This document shows, in pieces, positions 14,933 to 33,400 of a stretch of 55,247 nt of DNA. A program made the position numbers and the translations under genes. The DNA is from an archaeon (lineage in GTDB: Archaea; Nanobdellota; Nanobdellia; Pacearchaeales; UBA284). Each line of letters starts with the position of its first letter. The first letter of the stretch is position 1. The DNA is taken from positions 1 through 55,247 of the forward strand of contig JAUWNL010000003.1 of assembly GCA_030612665.1 (NCBI GenBank), in the 5' to 3' direction. The notes beneath the pieces are model-generated. The model ran no database searches and was not told the DNA's origin. It saw nothing but the letters and a program-made list of their open reading frames with translations.

Positions 14933-15018
14933 TTTTTATTTCTCCTTTCCTTTTTCTTCCCCTTATTCTTAGCCTGCTTTTTATAAACAATCCTAATGAT
15001 AGAAATATTTAAACATTT

Positions 15019-15819: not shown

Positions 15820-15871
15820 ATTTAATCATACAGATTTCTTTTTTTAAGTTTTTATATGATAAAATATATTC

Positions 15872-15995
15872 TTATTCTTCTAGTTCAACAGTTATTGGCT
15901 CTGCATTCTTTATGTATTCTGGTTCAGGAACTTTATTTCCAACATCCTTGCATGTATGCATCAAGATAACATTTCAAAGATGTTGCCCTTACCAT
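15872..15995 (-). pseudogene. Frameshifted remnant resembling HicB antitoxin C-terminus
   Basis: Removing a 4-nt insertion gives LKCYLDACKDVGNKVPEPEY... Confidence 0.4.
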
Positions 15996-16014
15996 CTTAT
16001 GATTATCTTTTCTA

Positions 16015-16245
16015 TTATCTTTTCTTTTTCTTCTTTTTACTTCCACATTTTGAGAAGATAAAGATATAAAGAATTTCAAGGATTGCAAGAGTGTTTACAA
16101 CAAGCAAGACAATAAACCAGACAATGTGTTTTCTCCTTGCTGCTTTCCACAATGCTACTCCTTTCCATGGAGCAGTCCATATAGTAACTAGAAGAATGAA
16201 CCACACCCCCCATGACGCAACAATCTGGTTAATTTGTTCTAACAT
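16015..16245 (-). CDS. DUF5652-like small membrane protein
   Basis: WTAPWKGVALWKAARR..WFIVLLVVNTLAILEILYIF. Confidence 0.8.
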   Translation of the reverse strand: MLEQINQIVASWGVWFILLVTIWTAPWKGVALWKAARRKHIVWFIVLLVVNTLAILEILYIFIFSKCGSKKKKKKR

Positions 16246-16291
16246 TTTCTGTTCTTTTTTCTCTCTTTTTTATTTTACTTTCTATTTTTAT

Positions 16292-18397
16292 TTATTCTTT
16301 TAAGTTAACTTTCTTTAGATTATAAGTTTTTCTTTCTTGATATTCTTCCTTTTTTCCTTTATTCCAATCATGAACAGGCCTAAGATAACCAACAACACGG
16401 CTATAGACTTCAGCAGGCTTTTTACATGTTGGACATTTATGTTTTTCTCCTTTAATATATCCGTGGTCAGGACAAATTGAGAATGTTGGAGTTAAAGTGA
16501 TATAGGGGATTTTAGAACTATTACAAATTTTTTTTACTAATAGTTTTGCATGTTTTCCTTCTATTCTTTCACCGAGAAAACTATGGAAAACTGATCCACC
16601 TGTGTATAAAGTTTGCAGTGGTTCCTGATGTTTTAGAGCAGAAAAAAGATCATTAGTATAACCAACTGGCAGGTTTGTAGAATTTGTGTAATAAGGCTCT
16701 TTTTTTCCTGCAGTTATTATTTCAGGATATGTTTTTTTATCTATTTTAGCAAGCCTATATGACGTGCCTTCTGCAGGAGTAGCCTCAAGATTATAAATAT
16801 GCCCAGTATGTTCTTGGAATTCTTTTAACCTTTCCCTCATAAAATTAAGAGTCTCAACAGCAAATTTTTGTCCTTCTTTTGTTGCAATCCCATTATTTTT
16901 TCCAAAGAGATTTAAACAAGCTTCATTCATTCCAACAAGCCCAATTGTTGAAAAATGATTGTTAAGGTTTCCAAGATATCTTTTTGTATAAGGCAGCAAC
17001 CATTTCTGTATATTCTTATCAACAACTTTTCTCTTTATCTCAAGAGAACGCATAGCAAGGTACATTAATTGTTCAAGTCTTTCATAAAATCTCTCTTTGG
17101 TTTTGCTTAAATATGCAATTCTAGGCAGGTTCATAGTGACGACCCCAACACTGCCAGTACTTTCACCAGAACCAAAAAGGCCTCCAGTAACATTTCGCAT
17201 TAATTCTTTCATATTCAATTGAAGACGACAACACATTGACCTTACATCTCCAGGATTTAAATCACTATTAATAAAATTCTGAAAATAAGGCAGGCCATAT
17301 TTAGCTGTCATTTCAAATAATTTGTCAGCTATCTCACTATCCCAATTAAAATCTTTGGTTATATTATAAGTTGGAATAGGAAAAGTAAAAACACGGCCTT
17401 TTGCGTCTCCCTCTGTCATTACTTCAATAAAAGCTTTGTTAATAACATCCATTTCATTTTGATAATCTCCATAAGTACTCTTTTGTAGTTTGCCACCGAT
17501 TGTTACATGTTGATCTTTCAAGTCATCTGGAACAGTTAGATCAAGAGTTAAATTAGAAAATGGACTTTGCCCCCCCCAACGACTTGATACATTCATATTA
17601 AAAACAAATTCTTGGATTGCCTGCTTAACTTCCTTGTAGCTAAGATTATCTGCCCTGACAAAAGGCGCAAGATAAGTATCAAAACTACTGAAAGCTTGGG
17701 CACCAGCCCATTCATTTTGGAGAGTGCCTATAAAATTAATCATTTGTCCTACTGCAGTCCTGAGGTGCTTTGGAGGAAGACATTCAACTTTCCCAGGAAC
17801 TCCGTTAAATCCTTCATGAAGAAGCTGTCGAAGACTCCAGCCAGAACAATAGCCACAAATACTTCCACTCATATCATGAATATGTATATCCCCATCAAAA
17901 TGAGCTTTGGCAATTTCAGGAGGATAAACCTGGTTCATTCCATAGTAAGCCATTACTGTTCCTGCTGCATGCCATAACAATCCAGAATAACTATATGTAG
18001 CATTAGCATTTTCATAAACACGCCAGTCTTCTTTGGCAATATAATCTCTAATAATCTGCTGAGAATCAATAAGTAATTTTCTTGTGTCTCTCAACTTTGT
18101 ATGTTCCTCACGATAAAGAATGAATGCTTTAGCTGTTTTAGCATGACCCCCTTCAATAAGAACCTTTTCAACATAATCCTGGATTTCTTCAACAGTAGGG
18201 GCTCTTTTCTTATATTTTTCCTTCAGAATTGTGGTTATTTCATCAGCAATTTGTTCAGAGGTTTTTCTATCCTGACCACCAACAGCACGAACTGCTTTCC
18301 AGATAGCATCAGTAATTTTTTCTTTATCAAATTCAACTAACCTCCCATCTCTTTTTCTTATCCTAAAAATACTTTCTTTTTCTTTCCTCTTTTTCAT
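16292..18397 (-). CDS. nrdD: Anaerobic (class III) ribonucleoside-triphosphate reductase with ATP cone
   Basis: IRKRDGRLVEFD ATP cone; SMCCRL; ATPAEG; Zn ribbon; YSRVVGYL glycyl-radical site; start set at MKKRKEK. Confidence 0.96.
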   Translation of the reverse strand: MKKRKEKESIFRIRKRDGRLVEFDKEKITDAIWKAVRAVGGQDRKTSEQIADEITTILKEKYKKRAPTVEEIQDYVEKVLIEGGHAKTAKAFILYREEHTKLRDTRKLLIDSQQIIRDYIAKEDWRVYENANATYSYSGLLWHAAGTVMAYYGMNQVYPPEIAKAHFDGDIHIHDMSGSICGYCSGWSLRQLLHEGFNGVPGKVECLPPKHLRTAVGQMINFIGTLQNEWAGAQAFSSFDTYLAPFVRADNLSYKEVKQAIQEFVFNMNVSSRWGGQSPFSNLTLDLTVPDDLKDQHVTIGGKLQKSTYGDYQNEMDVINKAFIEVMTEGDAKGRVFTFPIPTYNITKDFNWDSEIADKLFEMTAKYGLPYFQNFINSDLNPGDVRSMCCRLQLNMKELMRNVTGGLFGSGESTGSVGVVTMNLPRIAYLSKTKERFYERLEQLMYLAMRSLEIKRKVVDKNIQKWLLPYTKRYLGNLNNHFSTIGLVGMNEACLNLFGKNNGIATKEGQKFAVETLNFMRERLKEFQEHTGHIYNLEATPAEGTSYRLAKIDKKTYPEIITAGKKEPYYTNSTNLPVGYTNDLFSALKHQEPLQTLYTGGSVFHSFLGERIEGKHAKLLVKKICNSSKIPYITLTPTFSICPDHGYIKGEKHKCPTCKKPAEVYSRVVGYLRPVHDWNKGKKEEYQERKTYNLKKVNLKE

Positions 18398-18673
18398 CTT
18401 CTTTCTTTTCTTCCTTTCCTTACTTCTTTTACCTCTTTTATAAATTGTAGATAATAATAAAAAACAATAATAAATAATAACAACAGTAATAATCATAATA
18501 ATTGTAATAATAATAAAGATATACTCGACGATTTAGTTTTTAAATATAGTTGTTTTATATAATAATATTCCACCTTTTGTTCACGACTTTTGAGTTAAAT
18601 CAAAACTTCTTTTTCTATTTAAAAATCTTTTGAGAAAACTTTAAAAGGTGAAAATAAACCAAATTAAACCAAA

Positions 18674-19474
<801 letters not shown>

Positions 19475-19479
19475 CTTTT

Positions 19480-22149
19480 TTACCTTTTTCTTAGTTTATT
19501 AAGTCTCTTTTCTTTTATAATTTTTACTACTTCAAAAATAATTATCCCTGAAACTGCAAGTGGAATAACAATCATCCAATCTCTTATAGTGAGGGGAACA
19601 ACTCCAAATAAGGTTCCAAGAGGAGAATAAATAAGGATTATCTGGAGCATAATAGCAATAATAACCGCTCCTGTAAGATATTTATTTGAAAAAATTCCTA
19701 TTTTATGCAATGGTTTATTTGAACGGCAAGTAAATATAAAGAACATCTCAAAAATAATTCCTGTTGTTAATACGAGGGTCCTTATTTTTTCTATATTATA
19801 AGCAGATTGTAATCCTAAATGAAAGATGACAAGTTCTGCAATAAAAGCAAGTAATGCAGCAAACACCAAGAACAGAGTTATCCCCTGAAGCATTGATTTC
19901 TCTTTAATAGGTTTTTTATTCAAAACACTCTCCCCTTTTTCCACACTTAAAGCAAGAGCAGGGAGACTATCAGTCACTAGATTAGTCCATAAAATCTGCA
20001 GAGGTAATAAAGGCAAAGGTAGTCTCATGATAATAGAATAAAGAACAATCATCAATTCAGAAAAATTAACTCCAAGAAGAAACTTTGTTGATTTTTTTAT
20101 ATTATCATAAACAATTCTTCCTTCCTTGACACCTTTCACAATTGAAGCAAAATTATCATCAATAAGAATAATATTTGAAGTTTCTCTTGCAACATCACTT
20201 CCACGGATTCCCATTGCAATCCCTATGTCTGCTGCTTTGAGAGCAGGAGCATCATTTACTCCATCACCAGTCACAGCAACTATCTCTTTTTTTTCTTTCA
20301 AGATATTTATTATTCTTAATTTATGTTCTGGGCTAATTCTTGCAAAGATTGTAATATCATCAATCCTTGATTTAAGTTCAGAATCACTCATTCTTTCGAG
20401 CTCATCAACGTTAATTGCCTCCCCCATCAAACCAATTTTATTAGCTACAGCTTTAGCAGTCAACAATGAATCTCCAGTAATTATTTTTATTACTATGCCA
20501 GCATTTTCAGCTGCTTTAATAGCCCCCCTGACTTCTGGTCTTGGAGGATCCATCATTCCTTCAAACCCTATGAAAACCAGGTTTTGTTCAGCATCTTTTT
20601 GTTTAATCTTGCTTGCTTTCATGTTTAATTCTTTAAATGCAAATCCAAGAACTCGCAATCCAGAAGAAGCCATCTCTTCATAAACATGAATAATCTCTTT
20701 TTTTCTTGCTTGAGTTAATTGTTGAATCTTACCAAAAACAATTTCCTTAGAACATCTTTCAATCAACACGTCTGGAGCACCTTTAACATAACTTATTATT
20801 TTTCCATCTTGTTGCCTGCGTCTTATAATTGACATTAATTTTCTTGAAGAACTAAATGCGAATTCTTTAATTCTTAATTCTTCTGCAGTTAATTCTCTTT
20901 TATCAAATCCATAATCTAATGCTGCCCTAAGAAGAGCTTTTTCTGTTGGATCTCCAAAAAATATTTTTTTATCATCAATTTCTTCAATCCTCGCATTATT
21001 ACAAAGACAATTTGTTTTAAACAAAATCTCAAGGCTTTTTTCTTTATCTCTTTCTTTATCTTTCTCTCTCTTCACTTTTTCTAATTCAATCAATTTATTA
21101 TCATAAAATAAATCTGTAACTGTCATCTTTTCACTTGTTATAGTTCCTGTTTTATCACTACAAATCACAGTAACTCTACCAAGAGTTTCAGCAGAAGGAA
21201 GTGTTCTAATCAAACTTTTTTGTTTAAACATTCTTTGAACAGCTATTGCCAAACAAATAGTGATTACTGCTGGAAGACCTTCTGGAACAGCAGCAACAGC
21301 AAGACTTATTGAAGTCAATAAAACATCAAATTTATCCATTCCAAGGAAGAATCCAATTAATCCAATTAATACTGAAATAAAAATAATAAATAATCCAACT
21401 TTTTTTGCAAAGCTGTCTATTCTTTTTTGCAAAGGGGTTTTTTCCTGCTTAACTTTTTGCACCATAAAAGCAATTTTTCCAAATTCAGTATTCATTCCTG
21501 TAGAGAAGACAACAGCCTTAGCAGAACCCAACACAATACTTGTTCCAGAATAAACAATATTCTCTCTATCAACGAGAGGAACATCAATCTGCATTTTTTT
21601 TGTGAATTTTACTGCTGCTACACTTTCTCCAGTTAATATGGCTTCATTGACTTGTAATCCCTGGACTTCAATGAGCCTTGCATCAGCAACTATCTTATCT
21701 CCTTCTTGCAAAATAAGAATGTCCCCAGGAACAACTTCAGATGCATGAATTTCATAAAATACATTATTACGTAGAATTTTGGCTTTAGGAACCAACATTT
21801 TTCTTAATTCCCTAATTGAATTTTCTGCTTTATAATTTTGAAAAAAACCTATAGAAGCATTTACAATAACAATAGCCATAATTACATAGAAATCTATCCA
21901 GTGATTAAGTAATGCAGAAATTCCCGCAGCAATCACCAATAAAAAAATAAAAAAAGAATTAAATTGAGAAAGAAGAATCAACAAGGGCCTTATTCTCCCT
22001 TTTCTTTTTATCTCGTTTTTACCAAATCTCTCTAATCTTAATTTAGCTTCTTTATTCCCTAATCCTTTCTTGTTGCTTTTTAATTCTTTAATAACAGCAT
22101 CACAAGAAAGCGCATGCCAAGCTATCCCACCTTCAACCTCTTTTTCCAT
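19480..22149 (-). CDS. Cation-transporting P-type ATPase (type IIA, Ca2+-like)
   Basis: TGES, PEGL, DKTGT, KGAP, MDPPR, GDGVNDAPAL. Confidence 0.95.
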   Translation of the reverse strand: MEKEVEGGIAWHALSCDAVIKELKSNKKGLGNKEAKLRLERFGKNEIKRKGRIRPLLILLSQFNSFFIFLLVIAAGISALLNHWIDFYVIMAIVIVNASIGFFQNYKAENSIRELRKMLVPKAKILRNNVFYEIHASEVVPGDILILQEGDKIVADARLIEVQGLQVNEAILTGESVAAVKFTKKMQIDVPLVDRENIVYSGTSIVLGSAKAVVFSTGMNTEFGKIAFMVQKVKQEKTPLQKRIDSFAKKVGLFIIFISVLIGLIGFFLGMDKFDVLLTSISLAVAAVPEGLPAVITICLAIAVQRMFKQKSLIRTLPSAETLGRVTVICSDKTGTITSEKMTVTDLFYDNKLIELEKVKREKDKERDKEKSLEILFKTNCLCNNARIEEIDDKKIFFGDPTEKALLRAALDYGFDKRELTAEELRIKEFAFSSSRKLMSIIRRRQQDGKIISYVKGAPDVLIERCSKEIVFGKIQQLTQARKKEIIHVYEEMASSGLRVLGFAFKELNMKASKIKQKDAEQNLVFIGFEGMMDPPRPEVRGAIKAAENAGIVIKIITGDSLLTAKAVANKIGLMGEAINVDELERMSDSELKSRIDDITIFARISPEHKLRIINILKEKKEIVAVTGDGVNDAPALKAADIGIAMGIRGSDVARETSNIILIDDNFASIVKGVKEGRIVYDNIKKSTKFLLGVNFSELMIVLYSIIMRLPLPLLPLQILWTNLVTDSLPALALSVEKGESVLNKKPIKEKSMLQGITLFLVFAALLAFIAELVIFHLGLQSAYNIEKIRTLVLTTGIIFEMFFIFTCRSNKPLHKIGIFSNKYLTGAVIIAIMLQIILIYSPLGTLFGVVPLTIRDWMIVIPLAVSGIIIFEVVKIIKEKRLNKLRKR

Positions 22150-22182
22150 AAATCATTTAAACTATTATTGATTATAAACTTT

Positions 22183-23034
22183 ATGATAAATTTCACCAAC
22201 ATCAACATTCTTTTTGAAATAGGGTCATTTAAAGTTCATGCTTGGGGGTTAATGTTTGTCATAGCCTTTATTATTTCCTTTTTATTAATTCTAAGAGAAG
22301 CTAAAAAACAAAAAATTGATTCTAGACATATCTATAATATTGGATTATACATTTTACTTGGATCATTGATTGGTGCAAGACTTTTTTATGTCATAGAACA
22401 CTTGCCTTTCTTTTTACAAGATCCCCTCAAAATTCTTTTAGTCTGGCAAGGTGGCTTGACAAGTTATGGTTCTCTACTTGCAATTTTTTTCGTTTGGTTA
22501 TACATAAGGAAACAAAAAGATCTCAGTTTTTCAAAAATCCTTGACATAATGGCTCCATATATTGTTCTTGCATTTGCAATAACAAGAATTGGTTGTTTCC
22601 TTCGAGGATGTTGCGGAGGTATTGCAACAGACTTGCCATGGGCAGTTAATGGAAAACATCCAACACAACTCTATGAATCAATCTACAGCATGATTATTGT
22701 TTTCATTCTTCTAAGACTCAAAAAAATAAAAAAAGCAGGAAAGAAAACAAGATTCAAAATTCTTCTCAATAAAAAAGGCGCAATGTTTTTATATTTCCTC
22801 GGCATGTATTCTTTCTTCAGATTCTTCAATGACTTTCTCCGTGTTTATGAAACATTCTTTTTTGGTTTTGCATTAAGCCAGTGGATAGCTCTTGGAATCT
22901 TTGTTTCTTCTATGGTTTTGCTTATAAAAACTCGCTCTAGTTTTGCTATTTGGAAAATTAAGGATTCAGTAAAATTTGTAAAAAAAATTAGAGCTGAGAG
23001 TGAAAAAAGACTTTTAAGACGGAAAATAGAATAA
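22183..23034 (+). CDS. lgt: Prolipoprotein diacylglyceryl transferase-like protein
   Basis: IGARLFYV, WQGGLTSYG, RIGCFLRGCCGG, HPTQLYE, YSFFRFFNDFLR. Confidence 0.85.
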   Translation: MINFTNINILFEIGSFKVHAWGLMFVIAFIISFLLILREAKKQKIDSRHIYNIGLYILLGSLIGARLFYVIEHLPFFLQDPLKILLVWQGGLTSYGSLLAIFFVWLYIRKQKDLSFSKILDIMAPYIVLAFAITRIGCFLRGCCGGIATDLPWAVNGKHPTQLYESIYSMIIVFILLRLKKIKKAGKKTRFKILLNKKGAMFLYFLGMYSFFRFFNDFLRVYETFFFGFALSQWIALGIFVSSMVLLIKTRSSFAIWKIKDSVKFVKKIRAESEKRLLRRKIE

Positions 23035-23073
23035 GAGACATAAGTATATTTATTGGTAATTTATATGGAATAG

Positions 23074-23091
23074 TTAAGCCAGCTCACCCCA
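23074..23091 (-). repeat. Relic copy of aIF2-gamma 3' end (WGELA*)
   Basis: TGG GGT GAG CTG GCT TAA vs TGG GGT GAA CTT GCA TAA at 23931-23948. Confidence 0.8.
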
Positions 23092-23100
23092 AAAAATAAT

Positions 23101-23892
23101 TTATTTCAAAATAGTGCTTTTTCTTACATGGCTTTTGTTATTAACTCTTAATACAGAAAAATAGTGTCCGTTATGTTCTGGTTCAAATTTATAATTATAA
23201 TCTCCAGGAGATTGGTTTTCATCAACAATTTCTCCTACTTTAACTCCAAGAAGACTATAAATAGAAAGATTAACTTGCGCATTACTTTTCAATGTGTAAT
23301 CTAATTCAATTTTTTTTGAAGGATTAACACCTGTTTTAAAATTATAAAGTATTTTTTCAAGACCTTTTTTTTCTTCAGTTCCTACACTTGTAGATATTTT
23401 AGCATAAAGATAATCTGCTTTCCACAAACTATCTACATTACCTGTAGCTAATGATTTTATTTGTGTTTCAAGACCAAATATATCTTGCCACGTCCAAGAT
23501 TTTTGTCCTGTTATATCATATTCAATAATATTTGGTACTGAATCTCCTAAAAATGATTTTTCTATACCTTGCCATGGAGGTGTTCCATCAATATAACCTT
23601 TCATTAAAAGAGAATCATCAACAAATCCAGAGATATTATTTAGAGCACAAATCCTTACATTCGTAATAATCTGGTTAGTTGTTTCAGCAGGAGTAGGATC
23701 TCTTAGAGAAACTCTCAGTTCTTTATTATCTTTGTCACAAAAAGAATATTGGCTGTCAGCAACAAATGTATTTTCTGGATTTATCCATTTATTTCCAGGA
23801 TTCGAAGTTACTCCGTCAGCTGGCAATTCTAATAATAATGGTTTAGCAAGACTAGCTAAAAAGAATAATGTAACAGCAAGTTTTTTAAACAT
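23101..23892 (-). CDS. Secreted protein with T9SS type-A sorting (CTD)-like C-terminus
   Basis: Signal peptide; C-terminal NP..IELDYTL...VNLSIYSLLGVKV...PGDY...GHYF...RKSTILK. Confidence 0.7.
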   Translation of the reverse strand: MFKKLAVTLFFLASLAKPLLLELPADGVTSNPGNKWINPENTFVADSQYSFCDKDNKELRVSLRDPTPAETTNQIITNVRICALNNISGFVDDSLLMKGYIDGTPPWQGIEKSFLGDSVPNIIEYDITGQKSWTWQDIFGLETQIKSLATGNVDSLWKADYLYAKISTSVGTEEKKGLEKILYNFKTGVNPSKKIELDYTLKSNAQVNLSIYSLLGVKVGEIVDENQSPGDYNYKFEPEHNGHYFSVLRVNNKSHVRKSTILK

Positions 23893-23930
23893 TTTACTTA
23901 AATTTTAAACCTCTGATGGATTTATAAAGT

Positions 23931-25148
23931 TTATGCAAGTTCACCCCAACCAATAAGTCTCCAATGTCCATTATAATTTCTAGCTATACCAAATCTGTCT
24001 TCTAAGAAAGGAACAATCGGGATCTTCAGAAAAAGTTCAGTAACTTTCTCGCGTGCAGATGTGACTTGCCCGACACTAATAGAAGTATTTACACTTAACA
24101 TTAAAGTTTCATTGCTCTTAATCTTTTCAACAGCTAATTTTTCTTTTGTACCAACAATTTCCTTGAATAAATTAACTTTAAGTTTAATCTTATTAGTTAT
24201 TTCAGGAAGGGTTCCACCAAGAGAAGCGACACAACCAGATAATGAATCAGCTTTAGTCAGCAAAGGGTCAAGACTTGTTTGAATAGCAAGGCTTCCAGAA
24301 GGTAAAGCCTCATCAAGATTGTTTTTCCCTGAACGCAAGGCAATAATTTTTGTCTTGATTGTTTCATATTCTGTTTTATTCTGTTTTTTCAGAGATTTCC
24401 CAGGTTTAATTTCAATCTCTTGTCCAACAACAAGCTTTCCTTTCTTGAGAGTTCCACCAAGAATTCCTCCCCTAAGCTGTTCAGGTTTTGTTCCAGGTTT
24501 GTTAACATCAAAACTTCTAGCCACAAGGAATAAAGGCTTGCTCTTGACATCTCTTTCAGGCACCTCAAGTTCATTAATAACTTCAAGAATAGCAGAAATA
24601 TTAACTGCTTGCTGTCCACAAACAGGAATTATCTCAGCATTTTTAGCAATAGTTCCTTTGATAAATTCCTTAATCTTCTTATACTGTGCGAGTGCTTGTT
24701 CTTTAGTAACAAGATCAAGTTTATTTTGAATAATAATAATTTGTTTTATCTCCTTACTTTCCAAGGCTAGCAGATGTTCTTTGGTTTGTGGTTGTGGAAA
24801 ATCCTCATTAGCTGCAATAACCAACATGGCAGCATCAATTATAGCAGCTCCTCCGAGCATTGTTGCCATCAACATCTCATGTCCAGGAGCATCAATGAAA
24901 CTAATATATCTCACCTCTTCAGTCTTACCACCACATTCACATTCTTCTTTGATTGTATACATCCCACATTTTTCACACTTCCTAATAACTGCATCAGCAT
25001 ACCCCAACTTGATTGTAATTCCTCTTTTCAGCTCTTCAGAATGTTTATCACTCCAAACTCCAGTCAGTTGATAGAGTAAAGTTGTCTTGCCATGATCTAT
25101 ATGTCCTACAAGACCAATATTCAATACAGGTTGTTTTGTTATCATCAA
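23931..25148 (-). CDS. eif2g: Translation initiation factor 2 gamma subunit
   Basis: GHIDHGKTT, EELKRGITIKLGY, DAPGHE, PQPQTKEH, WRLIGWG. Confidence 0.97.
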   Translation of the reverse strand: MMITKQPVLNIGLVGHIDHGKTTLLYQLTGVWSDKHSEELKRGITIKLGYADAVIRKCEKCGMYTIKEECECGGKTEEVRYISFIDAPGHEMLMATMLGGAAIIDAAMLVIAANEDFPQPQTKEHLLALESKEIKQIIIIQNKLDLVTKEQALAQYKKIKEFIKGTIAKNAEIIPVCGQQAVNISAILEVINELEVPERDVKSKPLFLVARSFDVNKPGTKPEQLRGGILGGTLKKGKLVVGQEIEIKPGKSLKKQNKTEYETIKTKIIALRSGKNNLDEALPSGSLAIQTSLDPLLTKADSLSGCVASLGGTLPEITNKIKLKVNLFKEIVGTKEKLAVEKIKSNETLMLSVNTSISVGQVTSAREKVTELFLKIPIVPFLEDRFGIARNYNGHWRLIGWGELA

Positions 25149-25205
25149 AACAGAAAAGAAAACACTCTTTTAAATATTTCTCAATCTAACTTAATTTAAT
25201 TTTCC

Positions 25206-25388
25206 CTATTCACATGCATGTATACGCATCCCTTGAAGTGAGAATTTCTTTCTTTCATTTATCTTATTTTCATCACAAATTAATTTTTCTAAGTTTTCAT
25301 TTCCATAAACTTCAAAATTATCTTCATAACTATCCCCATACATCTCTACATATATCTTTAGAAGAGTATATATTCCTTTTACTGGCAT
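25206..25388 (-). CDS. Small hypothetical protein
   Basis: 60-aa ORF between S6e and aIF2-gamma. Confidence 0.35.
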   Translation of the reverse strand: MPVKGIYTLLKIYVEMYGDSYEDNFEVYGNENLEKLICDENKINERKKFSLQGMRIHACE

Positions 25389-25549
25389 TTTATTTTCTTA
25401 GTTAAATCTTTAGTAGATGTCTTTTTTAGAGAAAGATTATATTTAAAGATTTATAGTAATAGAAATATATTCTTATAATATATACAAAAAAGAATAATAA
25501 TAAAAAATAAAATAAATGAAGATAATAATAAAAATAAAATAAAAAAAGT

Positions 25550-26074
25550 TTATTTCCCTTCTTCAGTTGATTTTTCGTCTCCTTTTTCTGCTGGTTCTTC
25601 TTTTTTCTCTTTAGCAGGTTCCTCTTCTTTTGTTTCTTTCTCTTTAGTTTCTTCTTCAGTTTTCTCTTCAGGTTTTTCTTCCTTACCAAAAACTTCTTCA
25701 AGAGGCTTAGTTCCTTGTTTAATCACAGATAAATTTATTTGAATAATACCTTCATCAATTGTGTTAGCATGAACACTCTTTCTAAGTTTGAGCCCTTTAA
25801 CAGGCTTTCTCAACTTTTTCTTTTTTTTCACCTTTCTCAATCCCTTGCCTCTAGTCAAAAGCACTCGTTTCAAGCCCATGCCTTCAACATCAGCAAGAGC
25901 AGGAAAACCTTGCTTGTCACTTGCGCCAGTGATCTTAAATTCATAACCATCCAGCCTAGAATCAAAATCTTTTCCAGCAACACTCTCTCCAACCTTCTTT
26001 CCATTAAAGACAGGAGCTTCTATCTCAAGCTTGTGTGTCTTTCCTTTCTGCGATATATTTAATTTAAATACCAT
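25550..26074 (-). CDS. rps6e: 30S ribosomal protein S6e (acidic C-terminal tail)
   Basis: FKLNIS, ITGASDKQGFP, RKSVHANTI, QINL; usual position between aIF5B and aIF2-gamma. Confidence 0.92.
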   Translation of the reverse strand: MVFKLNISQKGKTHKLEIEAPVFNGKKVGESVAGKDFDSRLDGYEFKITGASDKQGFPALADVEGMGLKRVLLTRGKGLRKVKKKKKLRKPVKGLKLRKSVHANTIDEGIIQINLSVIKQGTKPLEEVFGKEEKPEEKTEEETKEKETKEEEPAKEKKEEPAEKGDEKSTEEGK

Positions 26075-26090
26075 CTTAATATTTTATCTT

Positions 26091-26351
26091 TCAAATTTCA
26101 CTTACTAAAGGAACTTCTAAATTATTTACGTTTATTATCCCCTCCAAGTTTTTTAAAAATTCTGTTACTCTTCTTTTTAAAAAAAAACCATTCCTGAAAG
26201 AAGGTTTTTTTATAATTTTTTTAATTTCTGATGAATGTGGCTCAAAAGTAAACTGGTCATTTGGTAACTCATTTATGCGCCCATATCTTTCTAATATCTT
26301 TAGTATCATTGTTCTATAATGTGAATCAGTTGTTGTGATTAGATATTCCAT
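26091..26351 (-). CDS. Hypothetical protein
   Basis: Fills the infB-rps6e gap; probable start MEYL. Confidence 0.55.
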   Translation of the reverse strand: MEYLITTTDSHYRTMILKILERYGRINELPNDQFTFEPHSSEIKKIIKKPSFRNGFFLKRRVTEFLKNLEGIINVNNLEVPLVSEI

Positions 26352-26353
26352 TT

Positions 26354-28081
26354 TTATATCCCCCAAGTTGCCTTAATTTTCCTTTTTATTTGAGCAATTT
26401 CTTGAAGTAATGAAATTTCTTCTTTGCTTAAATACTTTTTGTTTTCCCTGAGAATTCTAAACTCATCTTCATTTATATTAGAATAAAGGAAATCATCTTC
26501 TTTAACTTGTCTACCAAACGTGACTTTAGGAAGAGAAATAGCTAATTCTTTTCCTTGCCCTGCTTTATCAATATTCTTGCTTTCATGTTGCATTCCCTTA
26601 ACCTTGGCTATCTCATTCCCATCAGAATTCATTAACCTAACTCCACTTTTCAAGGTTCCAATCTCAATTCGAACACCAAAAACAGCAGGTTTGCTCTGTC
26701 TGAAACAACAATTTCTAAGGATCTTGAGCTTGCAAGGCATTGTAACTTTTTCAAGTTTCTTTCTTTCAATTTCAATGGCTTTCTTTTCTCGCCATTTAGC
26801 AAGTTCTTCAATAATATGATAAATAATCTCACTTTCAATGACATGAATCCTTTCATCACCAATTTCTTCTTCAATTGTGACATTAAAAGCAACAATAACA
26901 GCATTTAATGGCTGAGTTTCTAGATTTGCAATTGCAGAAACAACATTCCCCCGAGTGACATTGCCTATTCCAGCTTTACTGATTTTAATTCCATTTTTCC
27001 TAAGCAAGTCAATAAGTGCCTCAAGCGAGCCAAGACCTTCAGCCTTGACAATAATTCCTTTTTTATCCAGCTTAATTGATTCAGAAATTTCTTTTTGAAG
27101 TTCTTGTTTTAACTCATCAATATCTCCAGTCTTGACAGCAAAAGGCATCCCAGGAACTAGGCCTTCTGTTGTAGGCAGCTGAAGTCTTATCCCAGCTGCA
27201 GCAATAACCTCCTCGCGTAATTCATAACCTCTACCAAAAGGTAATGCCTCAAACAAAGACCTCATCTTTATTACAACAGGCTCTTCAAAACCAGCAACAA
27301 TAATTTCATCTTCCTTTTTCAACCTCCCATCATAAAGAATTGCTTCAATACAAGTAAACCCCTTCTCCTTTTTTATCTCAAGTATTGTGCCTTTTCCTTG
27401 CTCCCCAATATTTAATTTCCCTTTAAGGAATCTTTGAGCAAGTCCAGCAAGCATGACCATTAATTCAGGCAATCCCTCACAGGTTTTTCCAGAACAAGGA
27501 ATAAGCGCGAGTTGTTTGCTAAAATTTCCAATTCTATAAAAAATCTCAGAATCAAAACCAAGAGCATTAAACGAGCCCAGAATATTATAAAACTTTTTTT
27601 CAAAATCTTTTTTAGTGAATTCATTTTGACTTTCAATATTCTCGCGAAGATCCTCATGAATTTTCTTCCAACCAGCAATCCTATCAACTTTATTAAGAGC
27701 AACAATAAAAGGAATTTTATTCATTCGAAGCACTTCAATACTCTCACGAGTCTGCTCCATAATTCCTTCATTAATATCAACCACAAGAACAGCAAGGTCA
27801 GCAAGTGCTCCACCACGTTTCCGGAGATTTGTAAAAGCAGCATGTCCTGGAGTATCAATAAAAAGAAAACCAGGAATCTCTAAATCTATTCCAAACTTTT
27901 CAAGCAATGAGCCGCATTTCTCTTTAATATGATCTGAAGGAACTTGAGTAAAACTAATCTTTTGAGTAATAGCGCCAGCTTCTTTACCCGCAACACAGGT
28001 GCCCCTAATACTATCTAAGATAGTTGTCTTGCCATGGTCAACATGGCCTGCTACAGTCACGATTGGTTGTCTAATTTTCAT
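26354..28081 (-). CDS. infB: Translation initiation factor aIF5B (IF-2)
   Basis: IRQPIVTVAGHVDHGKT, DTPGHAAFTNLRKRGG, NKVD. Confidence 0.97.
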   Translation of the reverse strand: MKIRQPIVTVAGHVDHGKTTILDSIRGTCVAGKEAGAITQKISFTQVPSDHIKEKCGSLLEKFGIDLEIPGFLFIDTPGHAAFTNLRKRGGALADLAVLVVDINEGIMEQTRESIEVLRMNKIPFIVALNKVDRIAGWKKIHEDLRENIESQNEFTKKDFEKKFYNILGSFNALGFDSEIFYRIGNFSKQLALIPCSGKTCEGLPELMVMLAGLAQRFLKGKLNIGEQGKGTILEIKKEKGFTCIEAILYDGRLKKEDEIIVAGFEEPVVIKMRSLFEALPFGRGYELREEVIAAAGIRLQLPTTEGLVPGMPFAVKTGDIDELKQELQKEISESIKLDKKGIIVKAEGLGSLEALIDLLRKNGIKISKAGIGNVTRGNVVSAIANLETQPLNAVIVAFNVTIEEEIGDERIHVIESEIIYHIIEELAKWREKKAIEIERKKLEKVTMPCKLKILRNCCFRQSKPAVFGVRIEIGTLKSGVRLMNSDGNEIAKVKGMQHESKNIDKAGQGKELAISLPKVTFGRQVKEDDFLYSNINEDEFRILRENKKYLSKEEISLLQEIAQIKRKIKATWGI

Positions 28082-28227
28082 GCAAACTTAAAAGAAAATT
28101 AACTTTTAAATCTTACTTCTTTTTATGCCTTGTAGAAAGAGAATAAGAACACAAGATAAAGATAAATTTAGTTAACAAACAGAGCCCTCTTAGAAAGATT
28201 TAAGAATTAGAAAATTATATACTTTTT

Positions 28228-28548
28228 ATGAAAGTGATAACCTTTATGGTATTAATAGCATTCTTTCTGATGTTTTTATTTTTTATAAACGGATGTGTCA
28301 AAGACAACATTGAATGGGAAAAAACAGACAACTTATGGCGAGCAACAAATATGACCTGTTTAGAAGAAAAGCACATAGATTATCTTTGTATTGATAACTG
28401 TTATGAAGAAACAACAGATATATGGCAATTTTGTCAAGATAAAGGAACTATAAAACAAACAAACACTGGAATAGACGTCCTTTGTTTTCCCCAAAGTTGT
28501 ATTCCCCAGATTATCGAAGAAGAATGTACCGTGGTTTGTCCACTTTAA
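28228..28548 (+). CDS. Small Cys-rich putative lipoprotein
   Basis: Hydrophobic N-terminus ending FING|C. Confidence 0.6.
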   Translation: MKVITFMVLIAFFLMFLFFINGCVKDNIEWEKTDNLWRATNMTCLEEKHIDYLCIDNCYEETTDIWQFCQDKGTIKQTNTGIDVLCFPQSCIPQIIEEECTVVCPL

Positions 28549-28560
28549 ATCTTATTTAAA

Positions 28561-29385
28561 TTACCTAAAAACAATTCCAGCATAACCAACAGCAGTATTA
28601 TAATCCCCAGAAATATCTCCACTTGTATAATAATCAATGAGTTTGGCTTGCCATTTTTTGATTTTAGCTATTTCACTTAAAATTGTTATTCCATATATCC
28701 CACAAACAGTTGATTTTTCAGCTAAACTGTAGAAACCTTTAGAATCATTCTTTGAAATTTCAAGAATCATATTATTATCTAATCTAAACAGGTTTTCCTT
28801 AACATCCTTACTAAATGGAATAAATCCATATGAAGCACCATAATGAGTAAAATCAGATGAAACAATAATTGCTTCGTTAACAATAATCTCAGAAAGAATC
28901 CCAGCAATTTTCTTACAATCTTCATAACTTAATCCACCCAAGATAATAGAAACAATTTCAAATTTTTTCTGGCTAAGTTGTAAAAAAGGAAGCTGAACTT
29001 CAATACTATGTTCAGATTGATGAGCCTTTTCATTGACCTCAACAACAATCCTCTCTTTTTCCAGCTTTTTCATAATTCTCTCACTAAGACTTTTATTACA
29101 TTTGACAATTCCTAAAGGTGTTTCAAAATTCTCAAGACTAAAACATACTTTCGAGCCAATCCCAGAATGATTAACTCCCAAAATAATAAAATCTTTTTTA
29201 TTAGGAATCAAGCTAAATGTCTTGCCAGCAAGTTTCCCAGAAAACATGTATCCAGCATGTGGAACAATCGCAGCATGAACATTCTCCCTTTTACCAGAAC
29301 CAAGAAACTTCTCAACTTGTTTCTTTAATTCATCCTTGTCCGCAGGATAAAATTGACCTGCAACAATTGGTTTTCTCATAGTCAT
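28561..29385 (-). CDS. MEMO1 family protein (AmmeMemoRadiSam protein B)
   Basis: RKPIVAGQFYP, PHAGYMFSG, EHSIEVQLPFLQ, SSDFTHYG, VGYAG. Confidence 0.94.
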   Translation of the reverse strand: MTMRKPIVAGQFYPADKDELKKQVEKFLGSGKRENVHAAIVPHAGYMFSGKLAGKTFSLIPNKKDFIILGVNHSGIGSKVCFSLENFETPLGIVKCNKSLSERIMKKLEKERIVVEVNEKAHQSEHSIEVQLPFLQLSQKKFEIVSIILGGLSYEDCKKIAGILSEIIVNEAIIVSSDFTHYGASYGFIPFSKDVKENLFRLDNNMILEISKNDSKGFYSLAEKSTVCGIYGITILSEIAKIKKWQAKLIDYYTSGDISGDYNTAVGYAGIVFR

Positions 29386-29407
29386 GCAAAATTAAAAGAA
29401 AAAGCAA

Positions 29408-29860
29408 TTAAAAACATTCCTGTTTATCTGCATCAAGAAATAATTGATTCATTCTCCGGCCGAAATTCCAATCTAACATTGCTAAATACATCTTATCTTC
29501 GGGGATATATTTTTCATATGGTAATCCAGACATCTTAGCAATTTCTTCCGATACAAAAAGTCCTGAAGTCAATTGAACTGGTTCTAAGAAACGGTCTATA
29601 AAACTTATTTTTCCATTAATTGGATGAATGAATACTTCTCCTCCAATTTTATTAATATACTCCCCCAAATGGTCATTATTAGAAAGAAGATGATATTTTA
29701 ATGGAATCCCAATTTGGAATAAACGTGGAGCATCTTTCCATTCTTTTTTAGGAAAAACAGTTATTGGACAATAGCATAAACTATCTCTTTCAATGATTTC
29801 TCTAAAAAGTGATTCAATTCTCGAAAAATCTTTTCTTAAATATATCTCAGATTCTTTCAT
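29408..29860 (-). CDS. Hypothetical protein
   Basis: 150-aa ORF, ATGA-coupled to upstream ORF. Confidence 0.6.
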   Translation of the reverse strand: MKESEIYLRKDFSRIESLFREIIERDSLCYCPITVFPKKEWKDAPRLFQIGIPLKYHLLSNNDHLGEYINKIGGEVFIHPINGKISFIDRFLEPVQLTSGLFVSEEIAKMSGLPYEKYIPEDKMYLAMLDWNFGRRMNQLFLDADKQECF

Positions 29861-30228
29861 TTTTTTCTCAATCTTTTTTCAACTTTAGTAACATAATTTT
29901 CTGATCCATTAAGCCCAGTATCTTCTGTATCTGGAAAATAACCTTCTCTTTTGAATTCAGCTTCTCTGAAATCAGGAAAATCTTCTAATAGTTTATAATA
30001 AATCTTATACATTTTGTCTTCAATTCTAGCTTTTTCTAGTGTTTCTTGATCAGTTTTTCCTAGACTAGCCACATGAATAATATATGCCATTAAATTACCA
30101 ACAATATGATGATAATGTGTGAATTTATCTGAAACTCCAAATCTTTTTGGAAATTCATTTATCATCTCACGCCAGTGCAGCTCTTTCTGTTTAAATTCCT
30201 CAATAATCTTTTCTAATCCAGTTACCAT
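29857..30228 (-). CDS. Hypothetical protein
   Basis: 123-aa ORF with TATA box upstream. Confidence 0.6.
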   Translation of the reverse strand: MVTGLEKIIEEFKQKELHWREMINEFPKRFGVSDKFTHYHHIVGNLMAYIIHVASLGKTDQETLEKARIEDKMYKIYYKLLEDFPDFREAEFKREGYFPDTEDTGLNGSENYVTKVEKRLRKK

Positions 30229-30258
30229 AGAAATTGTCCTAAGAATGATTTTATAAAC

Positions 30259-30309
30259 TTATTGTTTTACTTCAATCTTCTTAATTCCCATCTCCTTCAA
30301 CTGGGCTTT
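30259..30309 (-). pseudogene. Relic copy of cca 3' end (KAQLKEMGIKKIEVKQ*)
   Basis: Matches intact cca C-terminus KSQLKEMGIKEIKEVK* at 31725-31775. Confidence 0.85.
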
Positions 30310-30310
30310 C

Positions 30311-31522
30311 TTAAAGCAATAACCATTTCCAAACTGGTCGCACAATCAACTTTTTGCCCCCAACCAAGAACTCATCTTCTTGATTAAAAGTCAAAATTAA
30401 ACCCTCACTTAAACTAAACCTCTTTAAAGCATTTACTAATCCTTCTATTTCCCTGTCTTTATTTTCTTCAGTTAAATCAAAACAAACTTGAATTGCCCCA
30501 GTAATTTTATCTTTTTCTTTGACTACAAAATCACATTCATTTTTTTCCTGAAAATAAAAAATATTTTTGAATCTTCTTCTCAAGCCTAAGAAAACAGCAT
30601 TTTCTAGCATCTTTCCTTTATCCTTTGAGAAAGAAGCAGAATTTGCATAAGAGAAGCCATTATCAATTGAATAGACTTTTTTTGGATTTACTTGTTGCTG
30701 CTTGTATGAATAACTAAATCTTGGGATTGTGAATATTAAATAAGAATTCTCGAAATGAGATATATAATCAATAACACTCTGAACTGACTTGATTTTAAAC
30801 ATCTTCTTTATAGAATTATAAGAGAATTCTTTTCCTACATTGCTAATGAGATAAACTGCAATTTTGTTAAGTACATCTGTATTTTTTATGCCAAACCTGA
30901 CAGCAACATCTTTCATAACTACATCTGAAAGCAGCTCATGATTAATAGCAGGATCATCTTTTTTCAGATATTCTGGAAAACCTCCTTTGTTCAAATATTC
31001 CTCGAAAGATTCTGCTGACGGCCTCTTCTTTTTCATATCCAAAAATTCCCTATATGAAAATGGAAATAATTCTAACTGTAGGTGCCTGCCAGTCAGTTTT
31101 GTTCCGAGCTCAGTGCTTAACAGAGAGGCATTAGAACCTGTTATCAAGACTTTTTCCTTTTTGTCAATCAAATATCTTATGAATTTCTCCCATTTTTTAA
31201 TGTTCTGGATTTCATCAAAAAAATATATTCCTCCTTCACCATATAACTCTTTCATTATCTGCTCGGCTTTGTTAAAATCAGAAAGCTCAAAATCCCCCAA
31301 TCTGGGGTCTTCAAGATTGAGATAGCAGCCTCTTTTCTGTTTTTTTAAAATCTGGTGGAGAAAAGTGCTTTTTCCACATCTCCTTATTCCTGTAATCAAA
31401 AGAGCAAAGGAGTCCCTAATTTTAATGTCTTTTATTTTCTCTCTCAAAATGCCAAGATCTAATCTGTTTAAAGACTCTCTTTGCGCAAGTATTACTTCTT
31501 TAAGCATGTCACGTGTTATCAT
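30311..31522 (-). CDS. AAA_14 / DUF4143 ATP-binding protein
   Basis: GIRRCGKS, FFDEIQ, ITGSNA, LTGR, GGFPE, ENAVF, ECDFV...IQVC. Confidence 0.92.
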   Translation of the reverse strand: MITRDMLKEVILAQRESLNRLDLGILREKIKDIKIRDSFALLITGIRRCGKSTFLHQILKKQKRGCYLNLEDPRLGDFELSDFNKAEQIMKELYGEGGIYFFDEIQNIKKWEKFIRYLIDKKEKVLITGSNASLLSTELGTKLTGRHLQLELFPFSYREFLDMKKKRPSAESFEEYLNKGGFPEYLKKDDPAINHELLSDVVMKDVAVRFGIKNTDVLNKIAVYLISNVGKEFSYNSIKKMFKIKSVQSVIDYISHFENSYLIFTIPRFSYSYKQQQVNPKKVYSIDNGFSYANSASFSKDKGKMLENAVFLGLRRRFKNIFYFQEKNECDFVVKEKDKITGAIQVCFDLTEENKDREIEGLVNALKRFSLSEGLILTFNQEDEFLVGGKKLIVRPVWKWLLL

Positions 31523-31553
31523 AGGATTATAGTGTTCATAAGATATATAAATC

Positions 31554-31595
31554 TTTCTATTAGCAGTAGAAACTATTTTCTATTTAGAATAGAAA
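31554..31595. promoter_or_regulatory. Two TTTCTA-N7-TAGAAA palindromic boxes upstream of the ATPase
   Basis: 31554-31572 and 31577-31595, adjacent to the TATA-like element. Confidence 0.55.
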
Positions 31596-31724
31596 CTTTA
31601 ATCTCCAGAGAAAATTTAGAGCTGAAGTGATTGAAGTGACAGAGTTGTAAGAGAAGTTCGCGCCATTTTCCAACAGCTTATAAGAAAGTCAATTAAATCA
31701 ATCTTCTTCTTTCTCTCACCTATC

Positions 31725-32984
31725 TTACTTCACTTCTTTTATCTCCTTTATCCCCATTTCTTTGAGCTGACTTTTGGGAATTCTCCTAATGAGTTTTTTC
31801 ATATCAAAAATCTTTCTCTGTGCTTTAGCATATAATCTCTTGTTCTTTACAAAGGTTTTTTTCCATGTTTTTTTGAATTTCTTAATATGTTTTTCAGGGA
31901 TATTCAATGGAGGCCCAGCAATAACATAATTTTTTTCTGGTTCTTTGTAAATAAAATAAAATTTTGCTTCTAGATTTTTCTCAGAAAATCCAAAAATACT
32001 TCTTATAACTTTAAAACCATTTTTTTTAAGAATAAATTGCAGATATTCATAGAATTTCCTTGTTTTGCTACCAGCAACATCAACTTTCTTTTTTAATGTA
32101 GTAACTTGAATTGTCACAAATTTTGCTTTGTTTCTCTTTGTTTCTTTCTTTAATGCTTCAATGTTTATTTCATGTTTAAAAAAATATGATTCTGAAGATC
32201 TTTTCAAGTATTTTTTGGCGACTTTAATAAATTTTTCAAGTGTCTTAAAACTAAGAGCAGCTGCAGCATTCCTATCTTTCTGAACAGGATCAATAAGAAT
32301 GATTGGTGAATGAAGTTTTGCTTTGTTTAATGAATGCATTACTTGTGCTTTGCTTGAATAATATTTCTTAGGATCAATAACTATTTTTTCTTTTCCATTC
32401 CATTTTGTCATTGCTCTTAGGAACTTCATGAATGAGCCATAATAACAAACAAGAACTTCAAGAACATAACCACTAAATCCGCGGATGTAGGATTCAGCTC
32501 CATAACAATCAGCACTATAGCTAAATGCCTTGGCAAGCCTAATTTCATCAGCAAGTTTCTTATTCTTTTTTATCTTACTTAGAATATAAGTGACATGAAG
32601 AGGCGAGACATCAGTAATATTTACTGCTTCTTCTGCTTTCTTGATTTTAAGTATTGGAACTAATTCAATTGTAATTTTATTGATTTTGACTTGAAAATAA
32701 TCCCTAGAACCATGAAGTCTTATTGCCTTGATTTTATGTTTTTTTAAAATCTTGCTTAGAAAATCAGCAAGTTTATGGCTCTGCTTAGCCATCTTATAAG
32801 GAAACATGACAAAAACATCCACATCATAACCTTTATCTCTCTTGACAAGAGTTTTCTTGGCATAACTTCCTCCAATAAAAAGTTCTATTCCTCTGCCTTT
32901 AATCTTCATAACTCTGTTTAGAGCTTCTTTTATCTCATCAAGATCTTTTTTCTCAGGCCTTATTTTTTCAAATACTTTTTTCAT
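31725..32984 (-). CDS. cca: CCA-adding enzyme (archaeal class I)
   Basis: GGSYAKKT...DVDVF, DVSPLH, YGAESYIRGFSGY, IDPVQKDRNAAAAL. Confidence 0.93.
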   Translation of the reverse strand: MKKVFEKIRPEKKDLDEIKEALNRVMKIKGRGIELFIGGSYAKKTLVKRDKGYDVDVFVMFPYKMAKQSHKLADFLSKILKKHKIKAIRLHGSRDYFQVKINKITIELVPILKIKKAEEAVNITDVSPLHVTYILSKIKKNKKLADEIRLAKAFSYSADCYGAESYIRGFSGYVLEVLVCYYGSFMKFLRAMTKWNGKEKIVIDPKKYYSSKAQVMHSLNKAKLHSPIILIDPVQKDRNAAAALSFKTLEKFIKVAKKYLKRSSESYFFKHEINIEALKKETKRNKAKFVTIQVTTLKKKVDVAGSKTRKFYEYLQFILKKNGFKVIRSIFGFSEKNLEAKFYFIYKEPEKNYVIAGPPLNIPEKHIKKFKKTWKKTFVKNKRLYAKAQRKIFDMKKLIRRIPKSQLKEMGIKEIKEVK

Positions 32985-32986
32985 AC

Positions 32987-33400
32987 TTATTTCAACCCCT
33001 TTTTAATTATATAAATTAATTCCTTTATATCTTTTTCTAATTCTTCTGTAATTGAATGGAAAACAATTTCATCATCTATACTGCCATACTCATGAGCAAT
33101 TATATTTCTCATACTCTTTGCGTCTTTAAGTTTTTCTGTAAGTTCAGACGAAATTATTTTATTTTGTAAAAGAATATCAAATGCATGTAAATCACTTTCT
33201 GGAAGAGATAACCTTCTTTCTTTAATAAATAAAAATGTTAAATCAATTACTGCTTCTATAATTATTTCAGCATATCTCTCACATGCAGCTTTTGCCTTTA
33301 AATCGTGAATATATTCTTTTAGATTAATTGGTCTTATTTCATTAAGTTCAGATAAATATTTTTCTATATCTTTAATTTTATCTTTAATTCTTTCGTTCAT
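32987..33400 (-). CDS. HEPN/DUF86 (HepT-like) RNase toxin
   Basis: RNIIAHEY = RX4HXY motif; start MNERIK. Confidence 0.9.
   Translation of the reverse strand: MNERIKDKIKDIEKYLSELNEIRPINLKEYIHDLKAKAACERYAEIIIEAVIDLTFLFIKERRLSLPESDLHAFDILLQNKIISSELTEKLKDAKSMRNIIAHEYGSIDDEIVFHSITEELEKDIKELIYIIKKGLK

Follow-up and report, generated by a model that had tools for sequence, protein, structure and literature searches.

Introduction

The 3' ends of conserved genes are targeted by mobile elements, and attachment (att) sites in tRNA genes are one case of this. In the part of PMC4046053 that bears on this question, thaumarchaeal casposons are described as targeting the 3'-distal portion of the aEF-2 gene, and Tn7 as using glmS. 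For Rhs loci and type VI secretion system (T6SS) arrays, the relevant section of PMC5361080 proposes homology-facilitated illegitimate recombination together with displaced 3' gene ends, and integron gene cassettes have been reported in Archaea (PMC9668308; bioRxiv 10.1101/2022.02.06.479319). Here we analyse a 55,247-nt stretch of genomic DNA from an uncultured DPANN-type archaeon of the order Pacearchaeales, from cold-seep sediment going by the run labels (assembly GCA_030612665.1, contig JAUWNL010000003.1; hereafter the window), in which the last codons of the gene for the translation factor aIF2-gamma recur beyond a single inserted gene, referred to below as the cargo gene, and shortly before the convergent gene lgt. 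Our best reading is that this locus represents an ordinary but clean fossil of gene gain. It would be the scar of an insertion made exactly where an essential gene ends, whereas an attachment site has not been demonstrated. The event is of a known kind and does not bring to light a new system of mobile elements.

With the orphan 3' ends of Rhs and contact-dependent inhibition (CDI) loci and with the Vibrio cholerae T6SS effector-immunity arrays, as treated in that section of PMC5361080, the history proposed here shares a homology anchor in a conserved gene, the arrival of a new 3' end along with the gene or genes downstream of it, and the survival of the old 3' end further downstream as an orphan. 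Unlike in those systems, the displaced piece measures just 18-26 nt, the residues it encodes are the same, the anchor would be a housekeeping translation factor in a DPANN host and not a polymorphic toxin, there is one event, and the route is a presumed one. The pattern is compatible with a displaced gene end in that TTATT..TTGGGG is found at the distal junction and the tail lies 39 nt from lgt, as it does in relatives.

As at the casposon and Tn7 targets covered in the cited part of PMC4046053, the insertion lies beside the intact end of an essential translational GTPase gene and is flanked by direct repeats. Unlike those elements, it comes without Cas1, PolB, an integrase, a transposase or terminal inverted repeats (neither such a repeat nor a transposase or Cas1 gene is present in the 830-nt insert), its cargo consists of one gene of 263 amino acids (aa), 5 of 26 positions are different between its repeats, and neither recurrence nor mobility is indicated. 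With integron cassettes, it has in common that a single-gene unit sits next to a fixed site and that older sequence is displaced distally. Unlike a cassette, it shows no attC-like folded site past the open reading frame (ORF), no adjacent IntI and no array. RNA structure at the distal repeat copy is not significant, since positions 23036-23115, when folded on both strands, do no better than shuffled sequences (z-scores of +1.25 and -0.66).

The end of aIF2-gamma is duplicated

The aIF2-gamma gene occupies positions 23931-25148 on the minus strand (405 aa according to the ORF list, ending in ...HWRLIGWGELA-stop). Its product passes the Pfam cut-offs for GTP_EFTU (PF00009, 104.9 bits) and eIF2_C (PF09173, 81 bits), and an orthologue emerged as best match, at E <= 1e-98, from 56 of 60 related genomes. 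The gene closes with CTT ATT GGT TGG GGT GAA CTT GCA TAA, the final 18 nt of which, TGGGGTGAACTTGCATAA (23931-23948), specify WGELA-stop. On the same strand and 857 nt downstream, a counterpart, TGGGGTGAGCTGGCTTAA (23074-23091), specifies WGELA-stop once more. The sequence-only reading, in which this duplication of terminal codons was first noticed, proved accurate on each of these points: both 18-mers lie at these minus-strand positions, they encode the identical WGELA-stop, and they differ at three sites, all of which are synonymous third codon positions (GAA/GAG, CTT/CTG and GCA/GCT), around a shared exact core of 9 nt, TTGGGGTGA.

In full, the repeat comprises 26 nt, of which 21/26 are identical (81%) at a spacing of 857, i.e. 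there are two mismatches beyond the three within the 18-mer. It consists of a proximal copy in use as the gene end, TTATTGGTTGGGGTGAACTTGCATAA (23931-23956, minus strand), and of a distal, untranslated copy, TTATTTTTTGGGGTGAGCTGGCTTAA (23074-23099, minus strand), and this pair was the top-ranked direct repeat of the region in a repeat finder. The likeness breaks off exactly at the stop codon, and local alignment places the flanks at chance level; an extension of the repeat past 26 nt was rejected by the same alignment of flanks. The ORF list of the intervening strand also bears out that the copies bracket exactly one gene, as the insert of 830 nt contains only one ORF that has a plausible start and reaches at least 60 aa. 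After the TAA of this gene, the sequence continues with ATT ATT TTT TGG GGT GAG CTG GCT TAA (23074-23099), and relative to the cargo ORF the distal copy lies in frame, three codons past the stop of this ORF.

This tail duplication is real and not a product of chance. A chance match in short spacers had been named from the outset as what would undermine the observation, and shuffle, genome-wide and order-wide controls all speak against it. Matches with three or fewer mismatches are expected 0.02 times per shuffled window, and the score of the repeat in its 100-nt context was reached in 1 of 500 shuffles, with corresponding values of 294/500 for the downstream and 341/500 for the upstream flanks. 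Within the 667,650-nt genome the two copies are the sole matches to WGELA-stop, and a degenerate pattern that accepts any synonymous spelling of it gave these 2 matches here and, in 400 further genomes from the order, 0 (a control pattern read backwards matched once over all 401 genomes). Among 86 other aIF2-gamma loci, i.e. those with at least 300 nt downstream, a single one has a tail match with three or fewer mismatches, which is AT-rich, has lost the stop and is not synonymous. The probability that all three differences fall on third positions of the 18 nt is 20/816 = 0.025 by our own arithmetic. As to the background in this genome itself, 32 of 706 ORF tails have a match with three or fewer mismatches within 1.5 kb downstream; these are mostly A-rich tails of lysine codons, the complex ones being genuine longer repeats. 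Finally, the gene order and both junctions are reproduced in contigs from an independent marine-sediment run (X2), and a misjoin of the assembly through shared k-mers is excluded because the exact core common to both copies is just 9 nt long.

The inserted gene

The cargo gene (23101-23892, minus strand, 263 aa in the ORF list) is preceded by a leader of 38 nt (23893-23930, minus strand). This leader contains a TATA-like TTTATAAA (23921-23928, minus strand), which begins 3 nt past the aIF2-gamma stop and, as read from the sequence, is a putative promoter. Directly past the TAA of the cargo gene follows ATTATTTTTT (23091-23100, minus strand), whose T6 run (23091-23096) may provide a termination signal of the archaeal kind. 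ATTATTTTTT also marks the left edge of the distal copy and is the probable insertion junction.

The cargo gene is lineage-specific, compositionally odd and foreign-looking. Its G+C content at third codon positions is 0.122, as compared to a genome mean of 0.212 with a standard deviation (s.d.) of 0.039, which places it 2.3 s.d. below that mean. Neither a paralogue nor a second copy of its flanks was detected in the genome, it was found in 0 of 23 other genomes of the family, and among 5.8e9 proteins, searched within a length band of 144-461 aa, only the protein itself was recovered. Weak matches occur in 9 of 400 genomes of the order and involve either its N-terminal part or its C-terminal approximately 80 residues. 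By eye, the N-terminus is hydrophobic and resembles a signal peptide. A single-sequence AlphaFold2 model of the protein reached a mean predicted local distance difference test (pLDDT) value of 34.7 and was unusable.

The C-terminal domain (aa ~183-262) had been labelled in the sequence-only reading as that of a type IX secretion system (T9SS) substrate. What remains of this label is a weak likeness to Por_Secre_tail, which falls below the cut-off in both PF18962 (E 0.02, 15.6 bits, cut-off 27) and TIGR04183 (E 0.0011, 19 bits, cut-off 23). By eye, this part of the protein aligns with tails of order relatives that read QNYPNPFNP...KMVLVK, a pattern typical of bacterial T9SS type-A sorting domains. 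Large proteins from five relatives of the order (L113, L114, L116, L117 and L120) end in domains of this pattern. Archaea are not known to have a T9SS-type secretion system, which makes such tails odd there.

Compared to strain X2, the cargo gene shows 8 differences in 792 nt, distributed over 7 codons (4 synonymous changes, 2 single replacements and 1 codon changed at two positions), and aIF2-gamma shows 3 differences in 1218 nt, a relation that fits a real, faster-evolving accessory gene. A 28-nt inverted repeat with 79% complementarity connects the 3' end of lgt (22958-22985) with the start region of the cargo gene (23881-23908); it is AT-rich and probably reflects chance pairing.

The junction between aIF2-gamma and lgt in relatives

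Convergent to aIF2-gamma, the window carries lgt, the gene for prolipoprotein diacylglyceryl transferase (22114-23034, plus strand; Pfam LGT, 181.5 bits). Between its stop and that of the distal copy there is a 39-nt spacer (23035-23073, assigned to no strand), a spacing as found in relatives. At the protein level, aIF2-gamma is 53-76% identical to its counterparts in 60 related genomes, and a metagenome scan with it had 75% identity as its best match. Tails were compared over at least 29 GTDB relatives and 80 metagenome loci, in which aIF2-gamma ends in WGEII, WGELL, WGEIL, FGEII and similar sequences, and once in WGELAK. A WGELA-stop tail was seen in no other aIF2-gamma examined, which places the origin of the second copy in this lineage or in one close to it.

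A convergent lgt gene lies downstream of aIF2-gamma at 23 of the 76 loci that have sufficient flank. At nine of these 23 loci the gap from stop to stop is -43 to +89 nt and there is no cargo, whereas at 14, including this window with its 896 nt, the gap extends over 305-1523 nt. The check for variable cargo downstream of aIF2-gamma, which the sequence-only reading had suggested, has thus come out positive, with variable DNA at 14/23 lgt-convergent loci. The upstream side of aIF2-gamma, however, varies as much as the downstream side, the gap between S6e and aIF2-gamma being 11-87 nt at 18 of 57 loci and 176-1892 nt at 39 of 57. None of the seven cargo-bearing GTDB relatives tested has flanking repeats above chance; in the same flank test, the repeat of the window was reached by 2 of 200 shuffles. 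In terms of Pfam, no mobile-element genes occur among the ten cargo ORFs of relatives, which include two Prok-JAB proteins (L005 and L023) and one sub-threshold match to GIY-YIG (L003). All three findings speak against a dedicated att site.

Some further features of this junction were observed along the way. A bacterial-type lgt is conserved in convergent orientation to aIF2-gamma over this archaeal family, and the lgt product of the window has about 30 additional C-terminal residues relative to alignments with relatives. In a metagenome relative with about 60% aIF2-gamma identity (L090), positions 2964-3093 consist of a perfect 59-nt tandem repeat in 2.2 copies, which begins in the last 12 nt of aIF2-gamma and in which the tail GAGATTATTTAA reappears after every unit. 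At another locus (L025), a related motif is located 28 nt past the aIF2-gamma stop.

Variation between strains

Contigs of strain X2 cover positions 22683-23103 with 1 difference and 23074-25481 with 12 differences, and both 18-mers are unchanged in this strain. Two other runs, X5 and X6, had only short or unlike pieces to offer and were excluded. The divergence of X2 from the window is mosaic, with 1 difference in 1713 nt in the region 21000-22712 versus 14 differences in 287 nt (4.9%) in 25714-26000, which lies in the S6e gene. The latter segment has the appearance of a tract acquired by recombination from a diverged lineage. Recombination of this population with diverged lineages, as it appears here, lends support to the origin proposed below.

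For positions 22713-23073, two contig branches exist in X2, i.e. a window-like branch with a depth of 10.9 and an alternative branch with a depth of 15. The latter fits the window with its 30-nt ends only, so that 22713-23073 is either replaced or missing in it, and its right edge coincides with base 23074, which is the first base of the distal copy. Should this branch prove to be a recombination tract, or else another cassette with its end at the tail copy, then a merely passive role as a relic would no longer suffice for the tail.

A probable displaced original gene end

We propose, with moderate confidence, that this locus goes back to a single recombination event, which inserted DNA equipped with a diverged aIF2-gamma tail of its own, and that the distal copy is the displaced original. 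In such a scenario, the donor DNA would have come from a diverged relative and would have contained the aIF2-gamma end of this relative and, behind it, the cargo gene. On one side, recombination would most likely have been anchored by homology inside aIF2-gamma; on the other side, an illegitimate join at the short homology TTATT..TTGGGG would have occurred 18-26 nt before the stop of the recipient gene. Homology-facilitated illegitimate recombination could have served as the route, or alternatively a single crossover by which a small circle was taken up on a short shared stretch. As a result, an 830-nt transcription unit consisting of a TATA-like box, the orphan gene for a secreted protein and a T-run would have been inserted just before the last codons of aIF2-gamma. 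The incoming tail GAA CTT GCA TAA would now end the gene, with the old tail GAG CTG GCT TAA having been displaced by 857 nt to become an untranslated relic 39 nt from lgt.

We infer the polarity of this exchange as well as its donor and its recombination route. With its 39 nt from lgt, the distal copy falls within the range of -43 to +89 nt that is seen in nine relatives, and it therefore occupies the ancestral position of an aIF2-gamma end and is probably the displaced original tail. Differences that are exclusively synonymous, together with a stop codon that has been kept, suggest that each copy evolved while serving as a coding aIF2-gamma end, i.e. in two diverged lineages. Neutral decay of an untranslated copy would also alter the other 12-13 positions of the 18-mer. 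For an origin in situ, the probability that changes hit 3 of 6 third positions and 0 of 18 neutral ones is, by our own arithmetic, estimated not to exceed about 0.002-0.01.

Several points weigh against this history. No donor, no empty site and no closer relative was found, the best other aIF2-gamma being 76% identical at the protein level, and matches to the exact and degenerate tail patterns are confined to bacteria and viruses that are unrelated, at a rate close to that of chance. It is the spacing that provides the polarity, and codon usage does not decide: the copy in use carries the commonest codons of the genome, and the GAG, CTG and GCT of the distal copy are commoner in aIF2-gamma (10/35, 6/46 and 16/27, respectively) than genome-wide. 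Just 18-26 nt are involved, so that all statistics depend on a few sites. In addition, this history gives no reason for the in-frame place of the distal copy after the cargo stop, which has a chance of 1 in 3.

Tiny DPANN genomes gain lineage-specific surface proteins by an entry route that is rarely visible. At this locus, the junction appears to be preserved at base resolution, with the end of an essential gene swapped for a synonymous copy and the old end left behind. This suggests that genes can be gained through recombination with diverged relatives in which conserved genes provide the anchor. For closer relatives, a displaced original tail predicts an empty site that ends in GAG CTG GCT TAA, 39 nt from lgt.

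Alternative origins of the repeat

An alternative that we consider unlikely is site-specific integration. Here the aIF2-gamma 3' end would be attB and the two copies would be attL and attR with TTGGGGTGA as their 9-nt core; the attP of an integrase-driven element would carry the replacement tail, and the single gene would be either what is left of an element in decay or a minimal cassette mobilised in trans. Exactly one gene does lie between direct repeats (26 nt, 21/26) whose core is identical, the end of aIF2-gamma is restored, the synonymous-only differences would fit an attP that mimics a gene end, and variable DNA occurs at the same junction at 14 of 23 loci. Moreover, the genome is 83.6% complete, and an integrase could be unassembled.

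The insert itself, however, carries no recombinase, its one ORF having the weak Por_Secre_tail match alone. No recombinase was found beside it either, in a scan that was limited to PF00589, did not search for serine recombinases and covered a genome of the stated completeness; the sole PF00589 match of this genome is a 281-codon open frame on contig C41. The insert ends lack terminal inverted repeats and an attC-like fold, the cargo and its flanks have no second copy in the genome, and the site was not seen to be reused with other cargo, given that above-chance flanking repeats occur in 0/7 cargo-bearing relatives and a comparable tail copy at none of the 86 loci. Nor was there an attP-like match in a relevant context among viral or genome collections: a 19-mer tail pattern had 15 matches in genome_contigs and 4 in viral_contigs. 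All came from unrelated bacteria or viruses, had in-frame stops on their upstream side and gave no tblastn match to the local proteins. No empty site was found among the GTDB relatives, in the metagenome scan or in the 401 order genomes, the nearest relatives being no more than 76% identical. A joint that skips 23092-23948, as expected upon excision, did not appear in four runs, for which contigs alone were available, and these drop rare variants. We also found no literature that links aIF2, an integration site and archaea. The 5' side of aIF2-gamma is as variable as its 3' side. On all these grounds, the initial proposal that this essential translation factor acts as an attachment-like site is not supported.

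Alternatively, the target itself may have been duplicated in situ, i.e. a staggered break or a local tandem duplication may have copied the last 26 nt or so upon arrival of the gene, with the copies diverging in place. Short direct repeats around an insert are the classic outcome of such a process, and, as the 59-nt tandem repeat of L090 demonstrates, a local duplication can include the tail of aIF2-gamma. The pattern of differences, though, is the wrong one for neutral decay, as three of three are synonymous third-position changes, none affects the rest of the 18-mer and the stop is kept. Furthermore, 26 nt is long for a target duplication of the transposase type, and transposon ends are absent. 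We therefore regard a duplication in situ as decidedly unlikely.

It is also conceivable, albeit quite improbable in our view, that the aIF2-gamma stop is a live recombination point, at which one-gene units with tail copies are added or exchanged without an integrase of their own. A host recombinase or short-homology recombination would serve this purpose. This idea derives from the two boundaries that both fall exactly after WGELA-stop, namely the start of the cargo and the start of the variable X2 branch. If true, reduced DPANN genomes would possess a system of cassette accretion with an essential gene as its anchor.

Very improbable is a function of the distal copy as terminator, small RNA or read-through extension of the cargo protein, for which it would be kept by constraint. 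Its in-frame location three codons past the cargo TAA, the adjoining T6 run, the unchanged state of both 18-mers in X2 and the coincidence of the variable-branch edge with its first base would all be in line with a function. On the other hand, no structure above that of shuffles exists on either strand, and scans for known RNAs were negative, with no Rfam family in 21000-26500 (save for one sub-threshold match elsewhere in that stretch) and no tRNA gene found in 15000-32000. X2 is also too close to be informative, differing by about 0.06-0.5% in the flanking genes, and such an element is missing from the relatives.

A resemblance by chance or an artefact of the assembly, finally, may be suspected for a repeat of only 18-26 nt in a genome where 32 of 706 ORF tails have a downstream match, but is barely credible in view of the nature of those tails (A-rich lysine codons in most, real longer repeats in the complex ones), of the shuffle, 86-locus, 401-genome and flank-alignment controls, which all oppose it, and of both junctions recurring in the contigs of an independent study around a 9-nt core that cannot cause a k-mer misjoin.

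Other repeated gene ends in the genome

Further tail duplications in this genome were considered as evidence for a common mechanism and rejected as such because of their heterogeneity, since they comprise tandem paralogues (contig C16), an intergenic motif (C41) and blocks of small genes (C8 and C20). They are described here in their own right. On C8, the last 37 nt of a gene for a 275-aa protein (11367-11403) recur with 35/37 identities 1305 nt downstream (12672-12708; L143). The two copies flank three small genes, which encode a 114-aa ORF product without Pfam match, a nucleotidyltransferase (Polbeta/NTP_transf_2) and a histone-fold protein. On C20, a 96-nt direct repeat with 93/96 identities (28338-28433 and 29065-29160; L144) includes the end of a gene for a 303-aa protein plus 40 nt. 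It flanks ORFs of 95 and 112 aa, which by eye resemble a nucleotidyltransferase/HEPN pair.

On C16, paralogues of about 430 aa are arranged in tandem (~28264-33556) at a spacing of approximately 1390-1405 nt, and each of them is trailed by an approximately 36-nt copy of the end of a 953-aa ORF located upstream. On C41, a GC-rich motif, AGCGAGCCCATTAGGGCGAGCGATA..., follows three consecutive genes (56820-56868, 57820-57868 and 58079-58103) and looks like a repeated intergenic hairpin element. Elsewhere on the same contig (~42419-42486), a gene tail specifying ALRYE-stop recurs 32 nt downstream with two silent differences (TAC/TAT and TAG/TAA), and a short inverted repeat lies between the two copies.

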